Of a stretch of DNA of 20,000 nucleotides, positions 3,691 to 20,000 are shown in pieces (position 1 is the stretch's first letter; every line of letters begins with the position of its first letter). The notes below the pieces were generated by a model that was not told the DNA's origin, did not search any database, and worked only from the letters and a program-made list of their open reading frames with translations. Location: contig BAAIJX010000077.1 of NCBI GenBank assembly GCA_054600435.1, forward strand, positions 50,530 through 70,529, in the 5' to 3' direction. The DNA comes from Neophaeotheca triangularis. Its lineage: Eukaryota. A program made the position numbers and the translations under genes.

Positions 3691-5666
3691 TCAACCGTTC
3701 CAACTCCCAACAGCGCCTAGTGAAGCCCCGAGGCTTGTCGAAAACCCCTTCCCTGGAGTTCGAGAGCTCTTTCCAATGGTAACAGGAGACGATGCATGGG
3801 TAATACTTGCTCGCCTCCCAGGTTCCGGGAGAGGGCGTGTAGAATGGTCGGGCGAGTTTAATAATGGGTTGCCCGCGCTGGTCTCTTTGCCGTCAGCACT
3901 TCCGCGGAAAGATTTCCCGTCACCACAAGCAGGCGCGGAATGCTGCCGGGACACGAGAGCAGAGACTTCAGAAATGGTTGCATCCCCACGAGGCCCCTTG
4001 TTCAACTCTCCTTCCTCCTCGTCCCCGTCCTTAGCCACCTCTTCATCCTCCCCGAAGCCTTTGCCCTCAATGAGCCACCAAACAGGCACAGCGGCAGCCA
4101 CAGCAATCCCAGTCAGCAACCACCAGGGCGCAATAATGTAGCCCTGCTCGACACCCCAAGTGAAAACTGCTCCGGTGACCGCAGGACCCACAGCTCTGCC
4201 AATAGCAGAAGTAGAGACCGCGATGCCATTCAGAGTGCCCAAGACCCTCAAACTGCTCGCAGAGTTCGTCAACAAGATTGTCGAACACGGGAAACTGAAG
4301 ATCGCACAGAAGCCTTTCAGAACGTAGATTACGAAGCAAGTCCATTTGGCTGACTGCTGCGTTGGTAGGAGTGCTGTGAAAGGTACTAGAAAGTAAGTGA
4401 TTGGGAAACCGATGGCGCAGACTTTGAGGCAGTTGAGCGATCCGAAGCGGCGCACAAGGGGTGGGAAGAGCACGAGTTGCGTTAGCAAGCTGATGATGCC
4501 GTAGAGGGTGCTGAGGAAGCCAATCTGGGCTGAGGTCAGACCAAGGCCGCCGGAAAACTGAAAGGCATTGGTGGAGGAAGCATTGAGGTGGTTTTGGGGA
4601 TTTGAAGTTGAGTGGAGGCGCGGGTAGTGCATGAAGACTGCGAGGATCTGGTCGCAGACCAGAGTGTGTGCGGCGAGGAGGGTGTAGACGACGAGGTTGA
4701 TGACGGATTGCCGGTTGAGAACTTCGCGGTACGAGGGAGCGGGAAGAGAGGGTTTTCGAGTCTTGTGCGCAACCATAGTGTCTTCGTCGTCGGAGTAGAC
4801 TCGCTTGATGAGAGGGTCGGTCTCCCCATCCCCTTGCTTGGCTAGGTCCCGCAGAAGATGTAACAGCTCTCCTAGCTTAACGGCGTGATGGCTGATGCCA
4901 CTTGTAATCTTTTTCCCCAGCAAGATTCCGTAGTCTCGGTTATGTTTCTTGCTTTCCAGCGTCTCTTTCAAGAACAAGACTCCAGTCACTGACCCAATGC
5001 CGAAAAAAGCAGCCGAGACGATGTTTGGCAGCGCATAAGGGTACTTTACTAACAATCCACCTTTGCCTCCCATCTCTTCTGGCTCGAGTCCCAACGGATT
5101 CGCCAAGACGCCTCCAAGTATCGGTCCTAACACGCTGCCTACGTTCCATACCAAAGGCATCACGCTGAAAGCCCGGGGCTGCAACTCCTTGTATGGCACC
5201 ATTTCCGCAACAGTCGTCCTTATAATGCCTACGTTGCCTGCACCAGCTCCCATCAGCCCCCTCGCTATCAACGCCTGTGTCATGCCTGTGCTAAAGCCAA
5301 ATAGCAAGCTGCACATCAGTGTCGTTGTCAGTCCCAGTAAGATGGCAGGCTTTCGACCATAGCGATCCGACCCTCTGCCCCAGGGTATCCCCATAGCGGC
5401 TTGGCTGAGTGAGAAGACGGAGCCGCAGAAGCCTGCATATTTCGGAACGCTCGAGGCCGGGATGGAGAACGACTATATCATTTCCGGCAGGTAGGGGAAG
5501 ATGGAGGTTTGGGCTAAAGGTTCGGCGAAGCGGCAGACGGCTGGATCAATGAAACGGTTAGCATTGATGATCTCTGTCGACAGGGCTTATCTCGATTCTC
5601 ACCCAGAATGGCCAGCTGCTGGTAGGGTAGCTTTCGTTCATGGAGGCTGCTCTCCGAGGTGGCCAT
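3691..5666 (-). CDS. MFS transporter (DHA1/ZIFL1/YCR023C-like), 2 exons (5603..5666, 3691..5540), interrupted by an in-frame TAG at 5473-5475
   Basis: The spliced N-terminus reads MATSESSLHERKLPYQQLAILAVCRFAEPLAQTSIFPYLPEMI*SFSIP. MFS motif A (WGRGSDRYGRKP) and multiple hydrophobic helices are present. Intron 5541..5602 has a GTGAGA donor, GCTAAC branch and CAG acceptor. 637 codons if the stop is bypassed. Confidence 0.85.
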
Positions 5667-6145
5667 GATGAGTATGGATATGAGAGAGGCATAGGTGTAG
5701 CAAGGGTGTCCCTCCAACAGCAGGCATTTCAAGTAGCCGAAGTTGTTTGCTATCTATGTACGATAGGGTACGGTAGGGTTAGTCACACAGCCTCATGCAC
5801 AGCCCGCAGTCAGATTGCCAACGAGGTGTTCAAGTAGGTGCAGGAGGTACCTGCCTTCAGGTCTTGTCACTGTGTAGATGTGGGGTTTATCGTTTGGCGT
5901 GGCATGTGATAGGCATATCGGTCCGTTCAAGCCGTTGTGGATCTGGACTGCTGGATCTGGAGATATCGAACGACATGCCATTGGATTGTGGTGACTACTT
6001 TCTCATGCACTCTTCCTGTGATACCCAAAGCTTCAAGAATAAGACTTGAGTTCCTTTGGATGATATCTAAAGCAGAGCTTCTCATCTCTTACGTGATATT
6101 GTGCAGTCTTCCACGGTGGTGATGACAACCTTTACCGACCTCCAT

Positions 6146-6484
6146 CTACGCAAAGCAACCGCGCGACAGTGGAACCACTCTCACCCACAGCATCACCATC
6201 AACCCTCCAAAATCCACAAAGTGAACTGGGCCCTGGTCTTGGCCTTGAGGCGGAATTACCGCAGGCAGAGCGATATGATTGACCACGTCATTGTCATTCG
6301 TAAGGACCAAATCAATGCAGACTTGGAGCCCGTGGACAGCGGAGTCCATGTCGTAGTAGCTGGATGCGACACACGCGTCCCAATTAGCGCCGCTGTCGTA
6401 AGACTCCGCGTAGCACCTGTCGTAGCGTTTGTTGTTGCTGCCGATGTTGCCGGGATTCCAGTGAGTTGAGGAAGTGGGCGGCAT
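6146..6484 (-). CDS. small orphan protein (112 aa, MPPTSSTHWNPG...LSRGCFA)
   Basis: A canonical 48-nt intron 6491..6538 (GTAAGT...ACTAAC...CAG) ends 6 nt before the ATG at 6484. The ORF has C-ending codon bias and stops at TAG 6146-6148. Confidence 0.5.
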   Translation of the reverse strand: MPPTSSTHWNPGNIGSNNKRYDRCYAESYDSGANWDACVASSYYDMDSAVHGLQVCIDLVLTNDNDVVNHIALPAVIPPQGQDQGPVHFVDFGGLMVMLWVRVVPLSRGCFA

Positions 6485-7347
6485 CTTGAGCTGTGAGCTG
6501 TTAGTTGTGCTCTGGAAGGTCTTGAGAGAAACACTTACTTTCCAAATAGTTTGTGTTGCATATGATGAAGAGTGTGGTTGGTGGTGAGTTCGAGCACCGA
6601 CGGCCCGGCGTAAATGGTGCTCAGTCAGCGCACAATCCTCACGTTGAACGCAGCCGCGAATAGCGTTCTCACACAGACAACGTTTCGCCTCGTCTAAGAC
6701 CACAGCAAAGCTTGGTATTCTCTCTTAGAGGCTTAAACATCCACGACATGCTCGCCATGGGAATTGGTGTGTGTTCTACCGTAGGTATAGCTATGCTGAG
6801 AAGGTTCTTGTATCGTCTTCAGTTGCCTGGATATTCGTAAGGCAGCGGGACGTTGTCTGCGAACAAACATCGGCTCTCGTTACCAAAGATGAGCTCACAC
6901 TACTATCACGGTGGACATTGATGAAAAGAGATTTGCACTGGTCAATTGTGACTACTGATTTGACGCATCCACACTCTGCTCCCTCAACTGTCCCCGCCCA
7001 TTGCAAGTTGTATTTTCCGTGCTTCATGCGACACCACCCGTCCCAGTATACTGCCTTCTTGCTCACCCAGTCCATTCATGCGCCTGTGTATCCCGGACGT
7101 TACCACTCACTCAAACGGTCATAGCCAGCTCCTCCGCCATGGGCGCTCAATCAAACGAAACGCACAGAAGTCATCCTGCGTCTGTCCAATTGTGTCTCAT
7201 GGCAGATGCTTTGAACTCACCTAACGTGCCGAAGTCTGGATCCATCTGCGTGCAGTTGGAGTTGTCGTAGATCTGCAAGACCACTATTAGCAAAGAGACA
7301 CCAAAGGTGCGTTCATTAAAGCAAGAAGGGGGGGAGGGAGAGGGGTC

Positions 7348-7431
7348 GTAGTCAGACGAAAGATGGTTGGATGCCGTCAGCGCGCCATTGGCGCTCAGTA
7401 TGAAAAGCACTCATTGCTGTCATCACGTAGA
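7348..7431 (-). ncRNA. intronic box C/D snoRNA, double guide (25S Am817/snR60-type site and a U26-type site)
   Basis: Box C GTGATGA (7420-7426), D' CTGA (7395-7398), GCGCC/GGCGC internal stem, box D CTGA (7352-7355). The D guide is complementary over 11 nt to the conserved LSU sequence CGAAAGAUGGU. The D' guide is complementary over 12 nt to LSU AUGAAAAGCACU. Lies inside intron 7273-7464. Confidence 0.85.
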
Positions 7432-7969
7432 AAGAGGGAATGAGGGGAGATGGTTAAGACTCACCACCTGATCCTTTGCTGTCGTCGTTCCAAGGAGCTT
7501 TCTGCTGCGCTTCGATCGTCTTATCCACAGACGCGACTTTAGCAGGGTAAACCAGTCTAGGCTTCTTGTTGCGTATGTGTGCGAAGTTGCCGTTTCCTGA
7601 GGGTCAGCCCAGTTTTGACCAATCAGAGTTAGCAAGAAGCTCGCAGCTCCGAACGCGGGTCATCCTTGCGGAACGTAGAAGGACACCGACCTTGCGCATC
7701 GATCGGACGATGTCGTTGAGCCCGCCAGACGTCCATATCTTTTCTGGGGTATCCTATGACCTTGCTCTTTCTGCTTCGTACGGGGAATCGTTAACGCGCG
7801 GATGCGTACGTGTGAGTGATGTTGGTGTTTTTGAGCCTTGCGAACACTGCTTGACAGAAAAACTCGATCAATCCGAAATTCTGCGTCTTGAGGTAGCTAC
7901 ACCTGTCGAAATGTTTGTTGTCAGCAAAGAACTTTCGACGTCAGTCTGGCAAAAGGACAAGACAGGGCT

Positions 7970-8062
7970 CGCATCTCAGACACCGCCCGATATCGCACTT
8001 TTCATGCGGATCTCGCGCTTCATTAGAAGCTCAGTCGTTGGGGTTTTGTCATCATCGATAAC
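7970..8062 (-). ncRNA. intronic box C/D snoRNA with guide to the 18S decoding region (snR70/U43 region)
   Basis: Box C ATGATGA (8049-8055), D' CTGA (8031-8034), box D CTGA (7976-7979), short terminal stem (TATC/GATG). The 10-nt guide CGGGCGGTGT is complementary to the universal SSU sequence ACACCGCCCG. Lies inside intron 7903-8089. Confidence 0.7.
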
Positions 8063-8631
8063 GCAAAGGGGGATAGTAAAGGTACTTACAAGTATCTTTG
8101 TCTAATGACCATCCTCATTTCCAGAAAAGACTTGCGTGATCTCTGTCCCTCTTGGTCTTGCCGTTACACTGAAAGAGGTACTTTGGGGTCTGTTGATTTG
8201 ATCGTCGCGTTGTCATGGGTTGCTAAAATGCTTCAGCAAAATCACGCGCCTTGAAGATGCAAGAGCAATGTACCTTGAGTATCCAGACCGCGGAAGTGGA
8301 GCCCTGCGAGTTTGGTAGTCTCGTCGGAAGATCGTTGACGTTGCCTCTAAGCGCGGATCCATGGGCGTAGGGAAAGTGAAAACGGGTTCTGGTGATGGGG
8401 CGTGAGTCAGCCTTTGCTCTTCAGGGATGATGGAAGCGAAGGGTTAAGTGCCCTGCTCTTTCTTCCGAAGCTTCTGCGGTACTGGCAGTTATTCGGAGGC
8501 TTTAGGAGCGGATGGATTGTGCACGCTTTCCAGATAGGCGCAGACGTTGCGATATCTTTGGTGGTCTAGACGAGATGTGTTAGCAATGCTGATTTAGTTT
8601 GATTCAACAGAAGCTGGCGGCGGCAAGCTAA

Positions 8632-8741
8632 GCTTTCAGAAACTAACATCTTTTTTATCTCCGTAAGTGCATCGCTCATTGCGCTGGCTGTCTGCCCGTA
8701 GGTGTTGACGCCGCACTCGATAATTTGTATAATCACAAAGC
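8632..8741 (-). ncRNA. candidate intronic box C/D snoRNA (possible 18S helix-45 complementarity)
   Basis: Variant box C GTGATTA (8730-8736), box D CTGA (8636-8639), GCTT/AAGC terminal stem and possible D' CAGA (8691-8694). Lies inside intron 8566-8773. Confidence 0.5.
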
Positions 8742-8897
8742 AGAAAGGGATCAAATGAACAAAGTACACTCACTAGGCTTTTTCTTGTCACAATCCAAGC
8801 TCGTGAGTCACCGGAAGCTCTCTTGTTTGTAGGAATTGGAAAGGATCGCAGACCATGTCGACGGTTCGTGGGAAAGGTCATAGCGACGGAAAGATAA

Positions 8898-10338
8898 GAC
8901 TGATGGTCGATGGCCCATCCTCAGTCAATCGTGCGGCAGCTCTCTGTGTGACGCGACCGCCCCATCTGTGATTTGTACCTTGTTAGCTAGAACGAGAAGG
9001 CATGAACAGACCGGAGCTCACCATCGAATTCTTCACTCCACTTTTCTCGGACCAAGGCTGCTCCAGCTGAGCGGGAGCGATGATCATCTCTGGTGACTTG
9101 AGGCCCGCCCACCTCAAGCCTGCGGCAGCCCTTGCAAAGAGCACGTACGATGCTGCCGCCCCACTGGAATCCTGGAAAAGTCAAGGGCGTTAGTACATCA
9201 TTGAGCCGTCGGCATGAAAAGAGAACTCACTACGAGTAGGAAGGGGCCCGCCCACCACCATCCATACGACAGCCCTGGCCCAAAGGACGCAAAAGCTCGC
9301 TGTCGCCCCACTGGAATCCCTAGGCAACTGTTAGCTTTCGAACGTTGCTTGTTGGAGGAGACTCACCTCTGTTGTCACTTATCAGACTGGGAGTCCGTCC
9401 CCAAGTGGCTGGGGTCCCGCCCACCCTCAGCCGTGCGGCAGCCCAGAAGCTTTTTGCTGCCGTCCCGCTGTCTGTCGAAGTGTCAGACTGCTCTTGCTCA
9501 GGGGGGGGACACGTACCTATTTCGCAAAGCTGACACACAGATAGTCTGAGGGCCCGCCCTCCCTCAGCCTGCGGCAGCCCAGAGAACGTTCAGCTGCCGC
9601 CCCGCTACCTGTAAAAGTGTCAGAAGCTTTTCGGGGAGGAGACTTATCAGGTTCCTTGAAGTCGACCAGAAAAGATGGTCTGAGGTCCCGCCCACCCTCA
9701 GCCTGCGGCAGCCCAGAAAGCATTCAGCTGCCGCCCCGCTACCTGTGAAAGTGTCAGTAACTGCTTTTCAAAGGGGAAGCGGACGTACCTGGTATGAGGC
9801 AAACGACACACACTTGAATGAGGGCCCGCCCACCCTCATCCTGCGACAGCCCAGAAAGCATTCAGCTGCCGCCCCGCTACCTGTGAAAATGTCAGCAACT
9901 GCTTTCCAAAGGGGAAGCGCACGTACCTGGTTTCAAGAGACGCACACTTGGATGAGGGCCCGCCCACCCTCATCCTGCGACAGTCCAGAAAGCCCTTCAC
10001 TGCCGCCCCGCTCCCTGTAGGAATGTTAGTGCACTCACCTCGCCTGGCTGAGGTCCCACCCTCCCTAGCCCGCGGCAGTCCATGAAGCCCTCTTCTGCCG
10101 CCCCGCACTCACCTCGTCTGGCTAAGGTCCCACCCTCCTTAGCCTGCGGCAGCCCAACTGCTCGACGCTGCCGCCCCGCTGCCTGTGAAACGTGTCAGCT
10201 AAGAGTGCCTCGCTGAGTGAGATTCGGGTGAGAATACTGACTGACTTTGGATGCAGACGAAGCTGCGTTTGGAAGAGGGCCCGCCCACCCTCAACCATGC
10301 GGCAGCCCAGACGCTGAATGCTGCCGCCCCGCTGTTTT
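8898..10338 (-). repeat. tandem array of about 11 diverged exon+intron modules (about 134-150 bp period), each with two hairpins
   Basis: Recurrent minus-strand consensus CAG|...GGGGCGGCAGC-N13-25-GCTGCCGCA-GGCTGAGGG-TGGGCGGG-CCCTCAG...|GT. Acceptors at 10339, 10183, 10015, 9881, 9743, 9609, 9472, 9320, 9172 and 8966, plus one unit without its own intron at about 10039-10106. Confidence 0.95.
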
Positions 10339-10457
10339 CTGTGTGCAGCATGTTAGCGATGACCGAGACAGCACTGCAGTGTAAGACTTCCCTCATTGGA
10401 GCTATCAGCCGCCGTGTGGGCGTTGTGTTGGAACGATGGCGTGATGGGTTGGGAAGT

Positions 10458-10833
10458 CTGATGAGCGAGGAAAAATTAGCGAAGAACAGACTGCTCGAAG
10501 GGAAGGGAAAAGGGGAGGGTAATGAGCACCTGGGCCTGAGCAGAACTCAGACTTTGTTTGGTAGCCGGTCAGACTGAAACAATGTTGGCGGGTCGTTCTC
10601 GCAAGCGGTGGGGCAAGACTATTGCGCAACGATTAGCGAAGAACGAGTTGTTCGACCAGAAAACGTGGGGGGGGGATGAGCACCTGGGCTGAGCCAATGG
10701 CTCAGCAAGCAAATGGTCAACTTGGTGGGTAGCCTTATGGGGTGCTGATGGGCGGGTGCGACGGCGAGGCTAGGTGTCTGCATGTAGTTATTGAGTGATC
10801 TCGTGGTCAACGTTTGAAGGGAGGGTTGAGTAC
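10458..10833 (-). repeat. second family of 2-3 duplicated exon-intron units
   Basis: Plus-strand ATTAGCGAAGAAC...ATGAGCACCTGGG(C)CTGAGC occurs at about 10476-10551 and 10632-10706. A related GTACTC..CCCTCCC donor lies at 10833. Confidence 0.7.
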
Positions 10834-13800
10834 CTAGGCCATGGAGTGCGAGACATGCCATGACCAGGTGGGCATATGGTCACTTGAAACGTCGGATGTG
10901 GTGAGGTGTTGATGATTGTCGATGCTTATGGGAAGGTATGTTAGTAAGAGTCTATTCAGCAAAGGTATGGAAGGAAGGTTATGTGAGGATGTGTCAAGAG
11001 ATGAAGGCATTGGGTGTGTTTGATGTGAGGTGAAGTATATGTCAAGGAAGACGTGATCAATGTCATACCATGTGTGGTTGCTGCAATGGTGTGTCGATGG
11101 TAGGCGAAGGTGGTATGGTAGAGACAGTTGTGTAAGAGAGTGGAGGTGAGGAAGTTGTCGAATAATGTTGGTTGTTGGTCGATGTCGAAACTATTTAGAG
11201 GAGTGGGAGATACAGGTCAGCCAGCCGAGTTTTGTCAAAAAGCAAGTGGTCTATGCTTTTCGCTACCACTCCGGTGTGCGTTTGAAAGTGGGACTGTCGA
11301 AACCAGTGGGACGTGTTTGCCTTGGCGGCAGCAAGGCGGCGGTATGGTATGGTCTGAAGAGTTGCCGTATACGCGTTGGTGTACCCTATATTGCTCATGG
11401 ATCGACGTGGTCGACCGACATGTTTCTACTGTGTGATATCCATTGGTTTGAACATCATATCCTGTCCCTGACAGACACCATTGTTGTGTTTTCCCCATTG
11501 GATCGCAAATAAGGGCTTCCCAGCCAGAAGTCTTGTACAGGGGAGGCTGCCTCAGGCTGGGGGGCCTCCCAGGCCGCAGTGAAGTTCACCAGGATAGTAT
11601 TATTGTCGGTGGGCAGCAATAATATCGCGCGAGTCTGATCTCCCCTGGAATACTAGGAGATAGACATAAGAGAACCTCACAAAGGTGCTCTGTTGTAGTT
11701 TTGCCGCCAGACGTACTCTTATGCAATACGCTGGCCTGTCTTACTAGAGGTTCCAACACGCAAGAGGAACGCTTGTCAAACACGCTCTCACTTATTCTCT
11801 CGTCTACCAGGGCGCTGATGTTGTGTGTTTGGGTCTTGTGGCCCTCACAAGATCGAGTGTATTGCACATAGAGCCGTTTGGCAGTACTCTTAACGACTCT
11901 CAGTGCGGCGCATAGTCTAGCTAATTGTCGTTGAAACGCGTCCCAACGTGCCCTGGGAAATATGGTACAGGTAATCAGTCTTTCTGGCGCGCCATGCTGT
12001 AACCATCTCGTATGAGGTCCAGAGGCAGAGAGATTTGGCCTTCTATTCGAAGTTGGAACGGTTTCAACCATTGAGTACGAATCGGAAAACTGAGGCCCAA
12101 CTGGCTATGATAGTACCACAAAATGCTGCATCCACCGGCGTTACTGGTGAGAGAAAAGCAATGCCGAACCAAGAACGTCAAGGTTCCAGACGAGCCGAAA
12201 CTGGCAAAGCAATGGCACAGTACAGCATGCCATCGCAATGATCCCCCTACGCACTCGCAACATCGACCTACCCAACCGCTATCGAACCTTTTTCACTTCG
12301 CCGAGACAAGACAGAGACTTTGGTGAAATGCAAGAAACAGCGCGTTTCAGTTCGCCTAGAAAATAGTAACGACCGTGCGCAAGGGGCTATTGTTTCCCTA
12401 CCTGGGCTACATTGATGGAAGAGACGGGCCTAGGGCGACGAGTACCGCATTCGCGACAGGAACTATTCTATACGTGAGCAAGAGGAGTCTACAGGCAAGG
12501 CCGGGCATATCGATCACAAACATCCCTGAGAATGGCAACTGGCGCTGCAGTAATGGCTGTTGCGGAAGGCTGGCAATGTGGCCGATCGTACGGTAGGTTG
12601 ACGATGCGAGCAGAAGAGCAATGATAAAGAACGGTCACTGAGTGTTGACTAGAAAGACGAGTACATAGCATCTAGTTCTTACGGAAGTATCGGGAGCACG
12701 CGATGACTTAGAGAAGCACCCGGTAGCATCGTTTGCTAGTTGCTGTATCAGCTTCCAATTCCAAGCCACAGGGCAGCTCTTTTTGCAGTACCGCAAGCTT
12801 GTATCTGACGCGTTCACGAGAGTTATCTGGTGAGATCAGACACAGCCCGTGGCAGACCCTTCGAGCCTTATCAACACTGTATCTTTGCCGTGAGCAGAAT
12901 GCCAAATCTTTCAATAATCTGCTTTCCGCCTTGAACTCTGGTTCACTTGCGCCAGTGCATCAGAAGAGCGAGCTGTTTTCGGGCTGACGAATCGACATCC
13001 TCAACAAACTACCAACAGGCCTCCACCGTTCAATCCATTGGATAGGGACCTCACGATGAGATCTTTTCAGTCAAGATGCGCTCCTCTGGCTTACACTAAT
13101 ACCTACACAGCTTTTCCCGCGCCGCGATCAACGTACAGGCTGGCCACGCGAGCTAACGATTCCAACCTCTCGAAACTAGAAGAGTATCTACCCAGTTAAC
13201 CAACGGGTCTAAGAATTTGGCGGCCATCGAGGTCTTCAAGAGCTTTAGGGTGATTCACAAGGCAAGCGATGTCTAAAGAGCTAAGAAAAGCTGGATCAGG
13301 ATATAAAAACGATGATAGAAGGAAGCTGATTGGATGTAGGCGGATGGTCACAATGGCAGGCAGATAACGGCAAAGTACTGCAGTGCTGTACTAGACTCGA
13401 GTCGAGCGTTTACATTAGCTCTTCTGGCCGGTCGAAATCTCTTCGCTAAGCGACGTCTCATCCGCGATTAGTCTGTGCCAAAATCAACGAGGGTCTACTG
13501 TAACGCTGGCAGTAGGGCTCGAGCTATTTTCTGTAGGTTTTATAGATGCTGAGCGACCGAGAGAGGGCAGTGGAAGAAACGTCTGTAGAGGCTATGGAGC
13601 AGCGAGGGTATGAAAGAATGAAGCATTGATTCTTCGGGGCAACAACACTGGCATTCAAATGAGAGCGAGCGGTTTGGACTGCAACGAGCCCCGCAAAGGC
13701 CTGATGTATGATCCGTCAAGGCTAGGAGCCCTATTCGCAACAGGAAAATCATCGGCTGTGGGTTGAGCTGAGAAGCCCTGACGAGTTTCCGCTGGGATTG

Positions 13801-14473
13801 ACGGCTTGCGATCGTCGACTGGAATACTTCATGAGCGCGTTCACTGGGTTTTATTCCTCGTCCAAGAGATTACATACGTTTGATAGCGCCGTTAGAACGT
13901 ACAAGGTAGACAGATACAGAAGAGACAATCAGGGAGCTATAAAAGGCGCTTGAGGAGAGTAAAAAAGAACAGAGAGGGCAAGATGCTTGGAAGCCTGACA
14001 GACAGGTGGAGACCGTTCGATATGAAGAATGAGGGACGAGGGTGGCTGATCACGTTTATTGAAAACAATCAATCGCCTGTTCTGTTGGACGGCGGTCTTT
14101 TCTAATTCGTACGTGAGCAGCGCTTGCCATCTCCGGCCCCTTAAGCATTGTATTCTAGTAGAATACTTATGGGCGTTAGAGTTTGCGGTGTGTGGCACAA
14201 GCTTTTATTCGGCATGAGAGACACAGAGGGCAAAAGAGACTCAAGTTTGGTTCACTTCAACGGACCGGCGCGGCGCGAGCTCCTCTTCACCGTCGTGTCC
14301 TTCTACGTAATAGGAGACAATATCGACCCGATTCTGTTCTGTCCAAACTGCCCAATGTATCTCCCAATCCACAGCATCTCTGCCAATCAACACCAGCTCT
14401 TTTCTCCAAATCATTCCCACCCAGATCTGCCAGCTCTCGCCACGAAATCCTGTGATCCTGTGATCCTTGAGAA

Positions 14474-14965
14474 CTACTTCTTCGTCAGCGCAAGTCCATT
14501 CAAGGCAACATCTCCTAGCCGTGTTATTCTTTCTCGGCCTTCCAAATTTCTTTCCAGAGAGTACATAGCGTGACGATGAACGCTGATGAAGCACGTTGTT
14601 CTTGCCCTATCCGTGGTATGCAACTCAGTACCGGTAGTACAATCGGTATGCTAACACATCTAATCTTCCTCAGCTCCAGCATTTGCTTGTCTGGCTGGTC
14701 TTGCTCGTTCTTCGTTCAGTGCCGGTCTTTTTTTTTTTTTTTTCTATGCGCTCCAATGCCCTGGCTCCGCATCCGCGGTGTCTCATCGATGGGTAAATAG
14801 GGTATTCATTTTGTCGTGCGGATACGTATGCCGGTAACTCGGAAGGCTCTGAGAAGAGGCGTGAATTCGTAAGCTCATGATGTCGACAACGGGGGTTTGG
14901 GAGCGCGGGTTGGGGTCGGAAGACATAGTGTGAGTAGTGCGCGGAAGCTGTGATGTCACTGGCAT
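14474..14965 (-). other. candidate small spliced gene or ncRNA (exons 14826..14965 and 14474..14606; 90 aa if coding)
   Basis: Possible intron 14607..14825 (GTATCC, internal A-run, TACTGAG branch, TAG). Upstream are a pyrimidine-rich leader (about 15050-15200) and a TTTAAATAAA element (about 15468-15477). No homology recognised. Confidence 0.3.
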
Positions 14966-16255
14966 TGTTGGCACAATTGGATAAAGGTCGTTGGCGTAGA
15001 CGATCGATGGGTTTTCGGTCGAGAGCCGCAAATATCAGCAGAGGGTCATCTCTGAAGCGAGACGGGAGCGAACCAAAAAAAAAATAGGGACGAAATCGAC
15101 GATACCAAGAAAAGAGAGAGCGAGATATACAGCAAAACAACTAAAACAACAGTATACAACAAATCCAAGAAATACCCTCCCAAAAATTCAAAAAGGGAGT
15201 TCAACTTCCAAAAGCCTCTACGGGAAACCCCACTCGCGTCCAATCGAACGTTCCAGCACGAGCACCAGCCCTCAAATCCACCCCGCCGCCCTTCTGCAGC
15301 AGTGTCTCCTCGACCTACCTGTAGTAGACCGAACCACTTCTCCGTCAATCCCAGGCCTCGTGTGTTCAATTTTCAGTGCAGGTACTTGGGTCATTGGGTG
15401 TACAGCAAAATCCAGCCCCACAAACGGCGAAGTCAAGCATCCAAACCCTGCCGGGCAGTCCCAGCAGTTTATTTAAACAGCCCAGCTGGATCAAGCTTAA
15501 ACATCCTTAGGTTCGGCACGCAAAGCCAGCCGGGCTTCGGGGGGGGGGGGGGCGGGGGGAGGGGCATTTTTAAAAGCCGCTTCGAGCGCCGGATGGGCGA
15601 CTTTCGGTGTTTCTACCTCATACACACGGCGGTTAGGGGTGGCAGCGTTTTCAAAGTGTGGAATGAGCTTGATACGGCACGAGTGCTTCGCGTGCGTTAG
15701 GTTGGAATGTAGCTAGGTGTAGGATCTTTGATGCTCTGCAGCGCCGGGAGCTGAGCTAGAAGGACATTGACGCTTTGCAGTGTGGTTAGGGTCGGAATTG
15801 GTGTTGTCTGTCTGACTTGGATTGAGGAAGACAACCCCTTTAGATTTCAATGAGTTGAAGGCGGGGATATCTTAGTCGCAATTCGGTGATGTGAGGCTAT
15901 TTATTTTCCCAAAGGTGACAGTCACTCACGCTGGCATATGATCAACATACGCGGAGGCGATATCGTGATGTCTTGCTGAGGCTTAGGTCGCAACTTTGGG
16001 AACATACATTATGATGCGGTTTCCGAAACAATATCTTACTACATAACGCTACGCTGGGAGCAGGGAGCGTCACATCAAAGTGAACACTAGTACACTATGA
16101 CCAACTACGAGGTCCTTTTTCGCTTCTATCATAGTCGTTGACAACGACCGCCTGCCTCCAACGCCTCGAACGCCGCGCTAACCCAAACACAATTGCCCAC
16201 CCAAGCCTTGCGAATTAGCCTGCAACTGCATCGTGAAGATGTCCGTAACCCTCCA

Positions 16256-17884
16256 TCATCTCAACTCCCCAACGCCCGCCGGATTCCTCTCCAACTCCTT
16301 CCTGCTCCCGCCAACCCCACGCCTTCTCTCCTCATCCCGCTTCACAACGCCATCCATGACATCCTGCCTAGGCAAAAAGTCGCTAACAACCCACGGCGCA
16401 TTCCTTACATATCTCAACTCCCACTCGATCTTCTTGATCATTTCTTCGATATCCTTGTCTTTGGTTTCGTTATTGTGCAAACGCGGGAATGAGGGGAAGA
16501 GTTTTCCATCGCCGTGGACGCGGCCGGAGAAAGCTTCCGGACGGGGCACGATGTCCATGGGAATGCTGTCGGGGAGGTTGTTCTGCGTCGTAAGAGCCGT
16601 TTCGTGACACCAGGCCCGCGCGACGTTGCGGGCCGTATAGCCGCCACCACCGAGGACGAGGAGAGGTAGGTTGTGTTTCTGCACGTATGCAAGGCATTCG
16701 CCGTGTTGGCGGATGTTGAGGTTGAACTGCCCGAGGCGGTCGCCGCCGAGACTGTCAGCACCGCATTGAAGGACGATGGCGGAGGGTTTGTAGGAGGCGA
16801 TTACGCGTCCTGTGACGGATTCAAAGAGGTGGCTGTATTGTCTGTCGTCTATGCCGGAGGGGATAGGGACGTTGAGGGCAAAGTGCTCTCCTACGGTGCC
16901 TTTGAGTCCGGTGTCGGAGAGGTCGCCGGTGCCGGGGAAGAACTTATGGCCGGTGTCGTCGTAGGGGCCGTAGCGGTGGAAGGAGAGGGTCATGACGCGG
17001 GGTTGGCGCTGAAAGGCTTCTTCCACACCATCGCCGTGATGGACGTCAATGTCGATGTAGAGGACGCGCGGCCAGACCTTGAGCATTTCTAGTATGGCGA
17101 GGACGATGTCGTTGATGTAGCAGAAACCGCTGGCTTCGGCTTTGTGGGCGTGGTGTAGGCCGCCGCTCCAGTTGATGGCGATGTCGGATTCTTTGGAGGC
17201 GAGCTGGCGGGCTGCTGCGAGCGTTGCCCCGGTATACATGAAGAGGTAGCTCGACATTCCGTCAAAAACCGGGCAATCCGCTCCGGGGCTTTTGCTGAGA
17301 TTGTAAGGCCCGAGGTCAACATTATCACCCTCATGCTTAGGGGGGATGGCTCTGTAAAACTCTGGACGTTCGCATAGTTTCTCAAAAGTCTGCGGGGAGA
17401 CTTGAGATAAGAAGTCGACATAGTCTGGGTCGTGAAAGGCGCGGACTGCATCCTTGGTGGCTGGCATAGCTTCGTGGGTAGTCATGGCGTACTGGAGGCC
17501 GTACGCGAGGACGAGATGTTTGGTCAAAGTAAGACGCCAAGGCTTCATCGGATGTGTGCGACCAAAGTGCATATTCTCTACTTGACTGTTGTAGTGGAAG
17601 GAAACCTTGTGGCCTTTGGGGGCGGTGATGCCATTTTCCTCTACATTCTGCATGATGCGCTGGCGAAGCTCTTGCTCTTTTGCCCATTCGTGGTCATCGT
17701 CAGTCATGGGTGGGGTGACAGTGCCGTTCCCGTTCAAGGGCGCCTCGACATCGTGGCCGTTGGGCATGTCTTGGTGAGACCATGGCGAACGGGCGTGGGA
17801 GGGTGGTGGATTGGGATTGCTGGGATGCCAGTTCTTGACTATCGAGTTGCGTATGTCGGCTCGGTTGTTGGTGGGGCCTGCCAT
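16256..17884 (-). CDS. HOS2: class I histone deacetylase, Hos2/HosA type (542 aa, intronless)
   Basis: Hos2-type HFGRTHPMKPWRLTLTKHLV. Intact catalytic motifs GGLHHA, SGFCYINDIV, YIDIDVHHGDGVE, FFPGTG, QCGADSLGGDRLG and GGGGYT. First in-frame ATG at 17884. Confidence 0.93.
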   Translation of the reverse strand: MAGPTNNRADIRNSIVKNWHPSNPNPPPSHARSPWSHQDMPNGHDVEAPLNGNGTVTPPMTDDDHEWAKEQELRQRIMQNVEENGITAPKGHKVSFHYNSQVENMHFGRTHPMKPWRLTLTKHLVLAYGLQYAMTTHEAMPATKDAVRAFHDPDYVDFLSQVSPQTFEKLCERPEFYRAIPPKHEGDNVDLGPYNLSKSPGADCPVFDGMSSYLFMYTGATLAAARQLASKESDIAINWSGGLHHAHKAEASGFCYINDIVLAILEMLKVWPRVLYIDIDVHHGDGVEEAFQRQPRVMTLSFHRYGPYDDTGHKFFPGTGDLSDTGLKGTVGEHFALNVPIPSGIDDRQYSHLFESVTGRVIASYKPSAIVLQCGADSLGGDRLGQFNLNIRQHGECLAYVQKHNLPLLVLGGGGYTARNVARAWCHETALTTQNNLPDSIPMDIVPRPEAFSGRVHGDGKLFPSFPRLHNNETKDKDIEEMIKKIEWELRYVRNAPWVVSDFLPRQDVMDGVVKRDEERRRGVGGSRKELERNPAGVGELR

Positions 17885-18440
17885 GGTCGCGGTATCATAG
17901 TGGGGATAATGTCCAGCCACCTTGTCACCCAAGCAAGATGAAGTGATGTGCGGTGCAATTGATTGACGAGAGGCTTTCAAGTCGTGTGGAAGTTCAGATT
18001 GTCCAACATCGACCTAGGCTAGGCTAGGTAGCTTTCGGACATGGATGTGCAAGGGCCATGCGGCTCGGCGGTTGAATGTCCCGATTCCTGGGGTAAAGCC
18101 CGCCTACTGGTAGTCCCTTGAAACCTCCAGGGTTAGGGTTAGCGCTGCCTTCGTGCTTCGGCCCGCTTTCCAGTGTCGTTCAGTCGTCCTTCACTTGCAC
18201 CTGAACTTTCCCAACGCGTGCAACGAATATTCATCAACAATACGACTAAGACACACGTGATTATCATCAAAAAAACAACATAGTACCCAGGGATCCCTCA
18301 TTGCCTGACCCTGCGTCTGAGCCGCGACTGAAGTCCTAAAGTGTCTTACAAGGGCATTGAGGACTCCCCCCGGCGCAACACCTCCACGGAACGAACAAGC
18401 CGAAAGTTGAGGTGGGCTTAAAAGCCTCCCTGGTGGCAAG
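17885..18440. promoter_or_regulatory. 556-bp divergent promoter region with a telomere-like motif
   Basis: Lies between the HOS2 (-) and YNG2 (+) start codons. Contains AGGGTTAGGGTTAG at 18129-18142 and (CTAGG)3 at about 18014-18028. Confidence 0.6.
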
Positions 18441-19831
18441 ATGAACGCCCCTGAAGATGCAGCTACCGTGCTTGAACAATTTATGCATGATGGTACGTAT
18501 CGATGGATACAAATGCCTTTTCCTGCTCGATTCAATTTACTAACTTCGTTGCAGTGGCAAACATCCCCGCAGAAGTCCAGCATCTGCTCCAGGAGATGAC
18601 GGCCAAGGACACTCAGATCGCCAATTTCAAAGTCGAAATCGACAAGAGAGACGCTGCCCTACAGAAATGGGTGCGGGTGAATGGTGGCCATGTACACAAC
18701 CCCAAGGAGGAACAATTTTCACGTTACGTGAGCGAGTGCTACGACCGCTGCGAGATCTTGCAGGCCGAGAAGCTGGGTTTGAGCGAAAAGGCCCTGTTGC
18801 TTCTAGAAAGGCAAATGAAGCGTCTTGATGTCGGCGTCAAGGGCTTGCAAAATGCCGACCTCTTCCCTACCGACTGGAACGGACCATCTCTTCTCAGCGG
18901 TACTGGAACAGGCCCGAACACCCCCGCCAGCGGCAATGGTTCAGGACAACTCCCACTCCAATCCATCAGCAGCAATGTAGGAGTCACAGCCGGTGCTCCC
19001 AGCCTTGCAAACGCCGCTCAAGCCCGCATGGCCCACGCCAATAACCGAACCGGCTCCGGAGCGGCAGGCGCCTCCACTCCTAGCAACGTCTCTCGCTCCC
19101 AACGCGAGGGCAGCTCCGACACCTCCAAACGACGCCGCCTCAATGCCTCTTTAGGAAACTTGCCCACGGCATCCTCCAGCCTCCGTCAAAGCTCTCTAGG
19201 CCCAGGCACCCCCAAAGCCGGCACCCCCTCCGGCACCGGGCCCTCCGCCAACAGCAGTTCCCGCGCCGGCTCAGCCCAACCCTCTCGCGCCCCGACCAAC
19301 AAAAAGGGAGCAACTACAAGCACCACGGCACCCCCGAACGCCCGCAAAACGGCCCCCCACCAAGCCCCCGCCACAAGCAACACGCGCAAACGGCCCCGGC
19401 CCTCCACGAGCACAACCACCACGACAACCTCCAGCAAAAACCCCAAAGACCGCCGCCGCACGCTCGCAACAACAAACACGGCCCGCAACACCCCGACGCA
19501 CTCCCTCTCCCCGACGCCTTCCTCCGCAGCCTCGGCCTCCCCAACCCCCTCTTCCCTGCACACGACCAAAACCCCCGCCAACACGCACGCCCAGCGCGGC
19601 GGCAACAGCAAAAACGACAGCAACGACGAAGAAGAAAACGACACGACGCTGTATTGCTACTGCAGCAAGGTCAGCTACGGCGACATGGTGTGTTGCGACA
19701 ACGACGATTGCGGGATCCAGTGGTTCCATTGGGATTGCGTGGAATTAAAGCGTGAGCCCGAGGGCGAGTGGCTGTGTCCAGATTGCCGCAAGTTGCCGCG
19801 GGGCAAGATTAGGGTGAGCAGGGAAGATTAG
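18441..19831 (+). CDS. YNG2: ING-family PHD-finger protein, Yng2-like (NuA4 subunit), 2 exons (18441..18492, 18555..19831), 442 aa
   Basis: Spliced N-terminal ING domain MNAPEDAATVLEQFMHDVANIPAEVQHLLQEM. Intron 18493..18554 (GTACGT, TACTAAC, CAG). C-terminal PHD YCYCSKVSYGDMVCCDNDDCGIQWFHWDCV...WLCPDC. Confidence 0.88.
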
Positions 19832-19855: not shown

Positions 19856-19896
<41 letters not shown>

Positions 19897-20000
19897 GGGG
19901 GTTTGGGGGGGGGGTTTTGGGGGGTTTTGGTTGGGCTGGTTTTTTTGTTGGGGTGGGTGGTGGGGGCGATGGGGGGTTTAGGGTGGTTTGTGTTGGGGGC
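19856..20000 (+). repeat. G39 homopolymer followed by a G/T low-complexity tract
   Basis: G run at 19856-19894, then irregular G4-9/T2-7 blocks just downstream of the YNG2 stop. Confidence 0.9.

Follow-up and report, generated by a model that had tools for sequence, protein, structure and literature searches.

A putative non-coding snoRNA host gene with a tandem array of structured exons in Neophaeotheca triangularis

Non-coding genes that host small nucleolar RNAs (snoRNAs) in a series of introns have been described in Neurospora crassa and other Euascomycetes; according to the parts of these reports that deal with host structure, they contain short open reading frames (ORFs) of 159-267 base pairs (bp) and undergo alternative splicing (PMC2780460, PMC3596301). 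Their exons are portrayed, in the corresponding part of the second report, as poorly conserved, sometimes lost altogether, and dispensable (PMC3596301). A candidate for a further member of this family lies on the minus strand of a 20,000-nucleotide (nt) stretch of Neophaeotheca triangularis DNA, hereafter the window (GenBank assembly GCA_054600435.1, contig BAAIJX010000077.1, positions 50,530 to 70,529 of the forward strand). On balance, the sequence slightly favours a non-coding snoRNA host gene with a tandem structured array in its exons. Unless noted otherwise, features are on the minus strand and are given in window coordinates. Like the fungal hosts as these sources present them, the locus has many short introns, one box C/D snoRNA candidate per snoRNA-bearing long intron, ORFs of no more than 88 amino acids (aa), and canonical fungal splice signals. 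Unlike those hosts, again within what the sources present, at least ten of its exons bear a two-hairpin module under constraint, and snoRNAs are absent from most of its introns (at least 10 of 14). At the level of sequence, it is this constrained module in the exons, with a mean identity of 85% in its core versus 40% in the exon tails, that sets the locus apart from the snoRNA-host family.

The nearest bifunctional model is GAS5 of human and mouse, a snoRNA host whose spliced exons include a decoy hairpin for the glucocorticoid receptor. The N. triangularis locus resembles GAS5 as a predicted snoRNA host for whose exonic RNA a second, structure-based function is proposed, but it has a tandem array where GAS5 has a single hairpin, and the sequences are unrelated. 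The Xist A-repeat consists of tandem GC-rich hairpin modules separated by unconstrained spacers and is thought to recruit protein many times. In both systems a short GC-rich module with predicted hairpins is repeated in tandem approximately 8-11 times; the Xist repeats, however, lie in one exon, whereas here nearly each module occupies its own exon flanked by mini-introns, and the array, which belongs to a fungus, shares no sequence similarity with the A-repeat. The introner-like elements of fungi, which are dispersed into many genes and in which the intron is the conserved structured part, are matched here in the multiplication of similar short introns with complete splice signals. Here, by contrast, the copies follow one another at a single locus, and it is the exon that is conserved and structured. 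Keyword searching of open-access literature turned up no fungal host gene or long non-coding RNA (lncRNA) whose exons carry a repeated structure; this speaks, weakly, for the absence of any published case.

The window has a fungal character: its introns are short and bear GTRNGT, CTRAY, and YAG signals. A strict scan of region 7220-11068 for non-overlapping triplets of these signals, in this order and within 40-260 nt, gave 10 triplets on the minus strand versus 2 on the plus strand. On the minus strand, 200 dinucleotide shuffles averaged 1.11 triplets and never exceeded 4, and other window stretches of equal size held 0-3 triplets per strand; the count of 10 is raised by tandem duplication, since three near-identical modules contribute to it. 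These figures bear out the dense, single-orientation run of splice signals that an earlier, sequence-only reading of this DNA had described. The same reading counted about 20 introns, which is generous: a hand tally from 11,068 to approximately 7,080 yields nine introns with full consensus, five with one deviation, and six that are doubtful, so the defensible number is 14 and about 20 is reached only by including the doubtful ones.

Six of the full-consensus introns are short. Intron 10112-10015 (98 nt, GTGAGT ... CACTAAC ... CAG) is the longest of these; an alternative donor at 10038 was rejected for it because this would leave a 24-nt intron, too short for splicing. The others are 9926-9881 (46 nt, GTACGT ... 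GCTGAC ... CAG), 9788-9743 (46 nt, GTACGT ... ACTGAC ... CAG), 9516-9472 (45 nt, GTACGT ... TCTGAC ... CAG), 9366-9320 (47 nt, GTGAGT ... GCTAAC ... TAG), and 9230-9172 (59 nt, GTGAGT ... TACTAAC ... CAG). Full consensus is also found in three long introns, 8773-8566 (208 nt), 8089-7903 (187 nt), and 7464-7273 (192 nt). One deviation is present in the candidate first intron, 11068-10925 (144 nt, GTATGA ... TACTAAC ... AAG), in 10241-10183 (59 nt, GTCAGT, with alternative GT dinucleotides at 10245 or 10237), in 9021-8966 (56 nt, GTGAGC ... GCTAAC ... CAG), in the long intron 7809-7597 (213 nt, GTACGC ... GCTGAC ... CAG), and in a possible further intron at 7220-7083 (GTGAGT ... GGTAAC ... CAG). 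The doubtful candidates comprise three with GTACTC or GTGCTC donors (10833-10778 with the former, 10683-10619 and 10529-10458 with the latter), one of 36 nt with a GTGCTG donor (10374-10339), one with a GTACAT donor (8273-8223), and the slot that follows unit 6 of the array described below, in which ATAAGT replaces a GT donor.

The locus appears to be non-coding, as the earlier reading had also held. The longest ATG-initiated ORF measures 81-88 aa when 0, 9, 14, or 19 introns are removed, and in the spliced model stops occur throughout all three frames and the lengths of the exons are not divisible by three. None of 34 stop-to-stop ORFs (79-214 aa, within 5517-16604), chosen from 122 listed of at least 50 aa, matched Pfam. 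A 156-aa plus-strand ORF over units 4-7 of the array (P0001) had no match at E <=0.01 among 4459 candidates, a search confined to the predicted proteins of 85-273 aa in the collection. A coding reading of the locus was rejected in view of the stop-broken frames and the lack of Pfam matches among the plus-strand ORFs tested.

The 5' half of the locus contains 11 two-hairpin units of approximately 67 nt, all on the minus strand within 10336-8904: units 1 (10336-10270), 2 (10183-10119), 3 (10110-10045), 4 (10015-9949), 5 (9881-9815), 6 (9743-9677), 7 (9609-9543), 8 (9472-9406), 9 (9315-9237), 10 (9168-9094), and 11 (8969-8904). The consensus unit runs from GGGG through hairpin 1 (GCGGCAGC / GCUGCCGC) and AGG to hairpin 2 (CUGAGG / CCUCAG); the loop of hairpin 1 is 13-25 nt long and ends in YUGG or AGG, and that of hairpin 2 is (G)UGGGCGGG. 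Ten units start 3-9 nt past an acceptor and are followed by a variable tail and then a short intron. The proposal that the structured repeat is exonic therefore holds for ten of the 11 copies and fails for unit 3, which lies inside intron 10112-10015 and, judging by its sequence, was recently copied there from unit 2. A covariance model built from the units (R1) finds exactly these 11 matches, at 49-84 bits, the next best in the 20 kb scoring 11 bits. TRF reports periods of 134 and 272 with 77-78% matches. In a search of 8900-10340 against Rfam 15, the two-hairpin unit gave no match at the gathering score or at E <=10. One metagenome scan with a 26-base gapped pattern returned nine loci, all single matches on contigs of 61-73% GC and none in arrays; as homologues they were rejected and taken as chance, with at most 27 bits under R1 versus 49-84 for the real units. 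K-turns, Smaug-type CNGG loops, thiamine pyrophosphate (TPP) riboswitches, and canonical four-tract G-quadruplexes were likewise rejected, their motifs being, by eye, absent or incomplete in most units.

Conservation is distributed unevenly within the repeated module. Among six diverged modules aligned over exon and intron, mean identity is 85% in the hairpin core, 40% in the exon tail, and 62% in the intron, where conservation is limited to the splice signals (donor, CTRAC branch site, and acceptor) and a C-rich tract; substitutions within these elements remain within consensus (CTGAC to CTAAC, CAG to TAG). In the alignment of all 11 units, 89.6% of 182 cells are paired, and pairing falls to 29-52% when partner columns are slid by 1-3 positions. 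Both sides have changed in 6 of the 17 base pairs, and the covariation score was reached by none of 500 shuffles. In hairpin 2, for example, G-C is replaced by A-U as a paired transition (unit 6 vs unit 2) and C-G by A-U as a paired transversion (unit 6 vs units 4 and 5), and unit 10 has an extra U-A pair. Taken together, these sequence patterns speak for selection acting on RNA structure as well as on splicing.

The tails of units 6 and 8 carry CUGAUAAGU (approximately 9650-9642 and 9385-9377) where other modules have the donor GTACGT, the G at donor position +1 having changed to A. Downstream of the lost donor of unit 8, at a distance of 14 nt, stands a new GTGAGT; no replacement is found for unit 6, and intron retention is therefore predicted there. 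Units 6 and 7 probably share one exon as a result of this loss.

Upstream of unit 1, four modules (A-D, 10924-10339) are separated by weak introns. Modules B (10777-10619) and C (10618-10458) have in common the blocks GCCCAG plus GTGCTCAT and GTTCTTCGCTAAT, and each forms a small CUGAG/CUCAG hairpin that ends at the putative donor; the odd donors of B and C may be used, although they are still rated doubtful. Exon 10777-10684 also contains CCCGCCCA (10749-10756), the exact complement of the hairpin 2 loop UGGGCGGG, and shorter versions, CCCGCC and GCCCAC, occur in the next two modules of this upstream group (10587-10592 and 10416-10421). These complements could pair with the loops of the array or could be due to chance in GC-rich sequence.

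In the 3' half are the four long introns noted in the sequence-only reading (208, 187, 213, and 192 nt), three of which do contain a box C/D snoRNA candidate as that reading had it. Candidate A, in intron 8773-8566, spans 8741-8632 (110 nt) and has the C box GUGAUUA (one mismatch), the D box CUGA, and a terminal stem of 4 bp by scan or 5 bp (GCUUU/AAAGC) by eye. Candidate B, in intron 8089-7903, spans 8059-7973 (87 nt) and has the C box AUGAUGA, D' and D boxes that both read CUGA, and a 4-bp terminal stem. Candidate D, in intron 7464-7273, spans 7428-7347 (approximately 82 nt) and has the C box GUGAUGA with CUGA as both D' and D; the scan gave no terminal stem of at least 3 bp for it. In all three, the distance to the upstream donor is 30-36 nt and that to the downstream acceptor 66-74 nt, a regularity which argues that the snoRNAs and the splice sites are both real. 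Intron 7809-7597, which has no recognisable snoRNA, belongs to the same size class and may hold one that has decayed or is of an unrecognised kind.

Two of the candidates are predicted from their sequence to guide 2'-O-methylation of ribosomal RNA (rRNA). The guide of snoRNA D, ACCAUCUUUCGU, stands directly before the D box CUGA and is complementary to CGAAAGAUGGU of large-subunit rRNA. It aligns with the guide of the Rfam family ceN109, which addresses the large-subunit GAAAG site, with equal spacing to box D (18.2 bits vs a gathering score of 52); the two share the antisense element AACCAUCUUUCG at a distance of one nucleotide from box D, and the Rfam alignment spans only the 3' half of the snoRNA. 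In the portions of the N. crassa supplements that list guides and sites, the guide of CD47 is UACCAUCUUUCGGGU followed by CUGA, with 26S-Gm785 as its site, and the guide of snoRNA D is the CD47 element shifted by 2 nt (PMC2780460 supplements 1, 4). With the N. crassa 26S fragment 5'-ACCCGAAAGAUGGUG-3' printed there for Gm785, snoRNA D forms 11 bp (PMC2780460). From this pairing and the fifth-nucleotide rule, its predicted target is the A that lies 2 nt downstream (3') of N. crassa 26S-G785, a neighbour of the site of CD47/snR39b as listed for N. crassa. We take this to be yeast A807, the site of snR39/snR59. The D' guide of snoRNA D (AAUGAGUGCUUUUCAUA followed by CUGA, 7393-7417) overlaps over 8 nt the 26S stretch of N. 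crassa CD11, GAUGAAAAG, whose site is Am356; a longer match to large-subunit rRNA may exist.

The last 10 guide nucleotides of snoRNA B, before box D, are complementary to ACACCGCCCG, the decoding-site strand of small-subunit rRNA. This sequence is present once in Escherichia coli 16S rRNA (positions 1396-1405) and is universally conserved in small-subunit rRNA, including fungal 18S. The same rule predicts as the target of snoRNA B the C equivalent to E. coli C1400. Because this site is offset by 2 nt from what we take to be the snR70/U43 site, snoRNA B is not called an snR70 orthologue. The snoRNA set as a whole differs from cluster III of N. crassa and the Euascomycetes (snR41-snR70-snR51), and its guides differ from those listed for N. 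crassa CD9, CD17, and CD6; none of six guide words taken from the candidates has an exact match in the N. crassa snoRNA supplements. An Rfam scan of 7200-8800 gave four weak snoRNA-like matches. At E <=10, region 6500-12000 gave three, namely the weak ceN109 match within the locus and two on the plus strand at 6551-6654, outside it.

In the mechanism proposed here, the minus strand from approximately 11,150 to at most approximately 7,080 would be one RNA polymerase II gene without a protein product, a fungal host of the UHG/GAS5 type from which at least 14 introns are removed. Three of its four long 3' introns would each release one box C/D snoRNA, and the spliced product, approximately 2.5-2.8 kb long, would carry ten exonic modules, the eleventh copy being intronic. 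These modules would expose G-rich single-stranded elements, GGGG on the 5' side of hairpin 1 and, within the hairpin 2 loop, UGGGCGGG. The array would have grown by tandem duplication of exon-plus-intron modules, after which the hairpins and splice signals were kept and the rest drifted. From the anatomy and the pattern of constraint, which are read directly in the DNA, we infer transcription, splicing, co-transcription, and binding.

The function of such an array is a more tentative matter. By analogy with the animal systems above, the exons may offer many binding sites to a protein with affinity for GC-rich hairpins or G-tracts, as a multivalent platform or as a decoy, which would make the host RNA bifunctional, as the sequence-only reading had suggested it may be; this is a possibility that falls well short of probable. 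An equally speculative suggestion, also by analogy, is that the array recruits or titrates an RNA-binding protein and in this way couples its availability to the transcription that yields rRNA-modifying snoRNAs. Alternatively, there may be one transcript whose hairpins act only in cis, helping to define short exons and introns, setting the pace of splicing, or giving protection from exonucleases that aids the snoRNA introns, with no partner in trans. This is unlikely, yet it fits the fixed register of the exonic units, 3-9 nt past the acceptor, the different CUGAG/CUCAG hairpin that directly precedes the putative donors of modules B and C, and the near-minimal size of the introns (45-47 nt). 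Conservation of GGGG and UGGGCGGG as sequence, and not as structure alone, argues instead that sequence is recognised as well as shape, which fits a partner. Moreover, the known fungal snoRNA hosts, as the two reports describe them, work without such exons (PMC2780460, PMC3596301).

The sole TATA-like hexamer on the minus strand of 5400-11600 is TAAATA at 11197-11192; a pyrimidine-rich stretch follows it, so that transcription may start near 11150. Approximately 350 nt upstream of this putative start is a GC-rich hairpin, GGGAGGC ... GCCTCCC (11534-11575), which on the plus strand is the top non-array match of the unit model (11.3 bits) and is probably unrelated. As for the 3' end of the transcript, no AATAAA, ATTAAA, or TATAAA occurs on the minus strand of 5400-11600. 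The link between the halves rests on sequence, and they differ in intron length and exon type; they could thus be two genes, a spliced array RNA (approximately 11,150-8,800) and a separate downstream snoRNA host transcript, and in N. crassa cluster V, within the part of the report that treats it, each snoRNA gene has its own putative promoter, yet reverse transcription PCR (RT-PCR) showed co-transcription (PMC2780460). Such a division is quite improbable here. The run of splice signals and their orientation are unbroken, and the last array acceptor is separated from the first snoRNA-intron donor by a linking exon of only 192 nt (8965-8774, unit 11 and its tail) that contains neither a TATA-like nor an AATAAA-like hexamer. 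A poly(A) site together with a promoter would have little space in this exon, which makes one transcript the economical solution, and a terminator plus promoter within it is unlikely on the sequence. If the locus is expressed, the two halves are rather probably co-transcribed.

The least probable of the alternatives is that the array was duplicated in tandem as DNA and has no function as RNA (being a young minisatellite, a palindromic or foldback element, or clustered GC boxes for a zinc-finger factor), its splice-like signals being copies of one chance or ancestral intron: the TRF periods, the obvious recent duplication of units 2 and 3, the GC-box-like words GCGGGG and GGGCGGG in each unit, the strand-symmetric pairing, and the unremarkable fold scores favour it, but neutral copies should decay evenly, whereas here the core far exceeds the tails in identity and the intron keeps only its splicing signals, two-sided changes at 6 of 17 pairs are needless for a protein-binding DNA site, and the 11 copies have one orientation, with the exonic ones in the same splice register and none elsewhere in the 20 kb. 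The GC-box words presumably resemble sites for factors of the CreA/Mig1 type. Constraint together with paired changes is not a pattern expected of a neutral minisatellite or an array of DNA-binding sites.

Several observations weigh against the interpretation of the locus as a snoRNA host with a structured exon array. Signals are poor in 6 of the approximately 20 introns, a GT donor is lacking after unit 6, and unit 3 falls within an intron. The constraint is seen only among paralogous, and hence non-independent, copies at one locus, and core-restricted gene conversion could produce the same picture as selection. The folding energies of single units are ordinary for their composition (z -0.4 to -1.65). 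The pairing is strand-neutral, with 9 G-U cells versus 6 A-C cells; as this comparison is uninformative, the strand of the array rests on the splice signals. On the snoRNA side, candidate A has a deviant C box and no rRNA target was found for it, the predicted site of snoRNA B lies, as assumed above, 2 nt from that of snR70/U43, and intron 7809-7597 shows no C/D or H/ACA features and a fold not more stable than those of shuffles (z +1.34). No Rfam family reached its gathering score in the whole window, the best snoRNA-like scores being 18.2, 17.1, and 16.1 bits versus thresholds of 52, 42, and 40. Finally, the protein-platform function is argued by analogy only.

The locus is flanked by protein-coding genes. 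On one side is an ORF for an MFS transporter (3691-5394, minus strand) from which the N-terminus is missing; its likely first exon, at approximately 5600-5666 on the minus strand, begins MATSESSLHERKLPYQQLAIL and lies upstream across an intron. A first exon near 5666 would place the MFS promoter approximately 1.5 kb or less from the 3' end of the non-coding gene. On the other side are genes for a histone deacetylase (16256-17980, minus strand) and an ING/PHD protein (18503-19831, plus strand). From where the non-coding gene is taken to start to the 3' end of the deacetylase gene lie approximately 5 kb (11200-16250) in which none of the ORFs tested, on either strand, matches Pfam. No transfer RNA (tRNA) genes were found in the window. 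Low-complexity sequence includes a 26-nt G run (15539-15564), a 16-nt T run (14728-14743), and, close to the end of the window near 19856-19990, a G-rich run of approximately 60 with GGGTT-like repeats.

ORF-based gene callers miss this locus entirely, and the model R1 could be used on related genomes to look for orthologues. Growth of the array by duplication of whole exon-intron units, with subsequent decay of the spacers, would provide a natural read-out of what selection sees. The exons of snoRNA hosts are usually treated as disposable; a constrained exon array, if the reading is true, would make this gene a clear example, from outside the animals, of a host with two functions. Among fungal lncRNAs it would be a rare one with a defined functional element, 67 nt long and open to mutation, probing, and use as bait. 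Such a gene would be a fungal counterpart of GAS5 and of the repeat-containing lncRNA scaffolds, assembled exon by exon through the duplication of modules.

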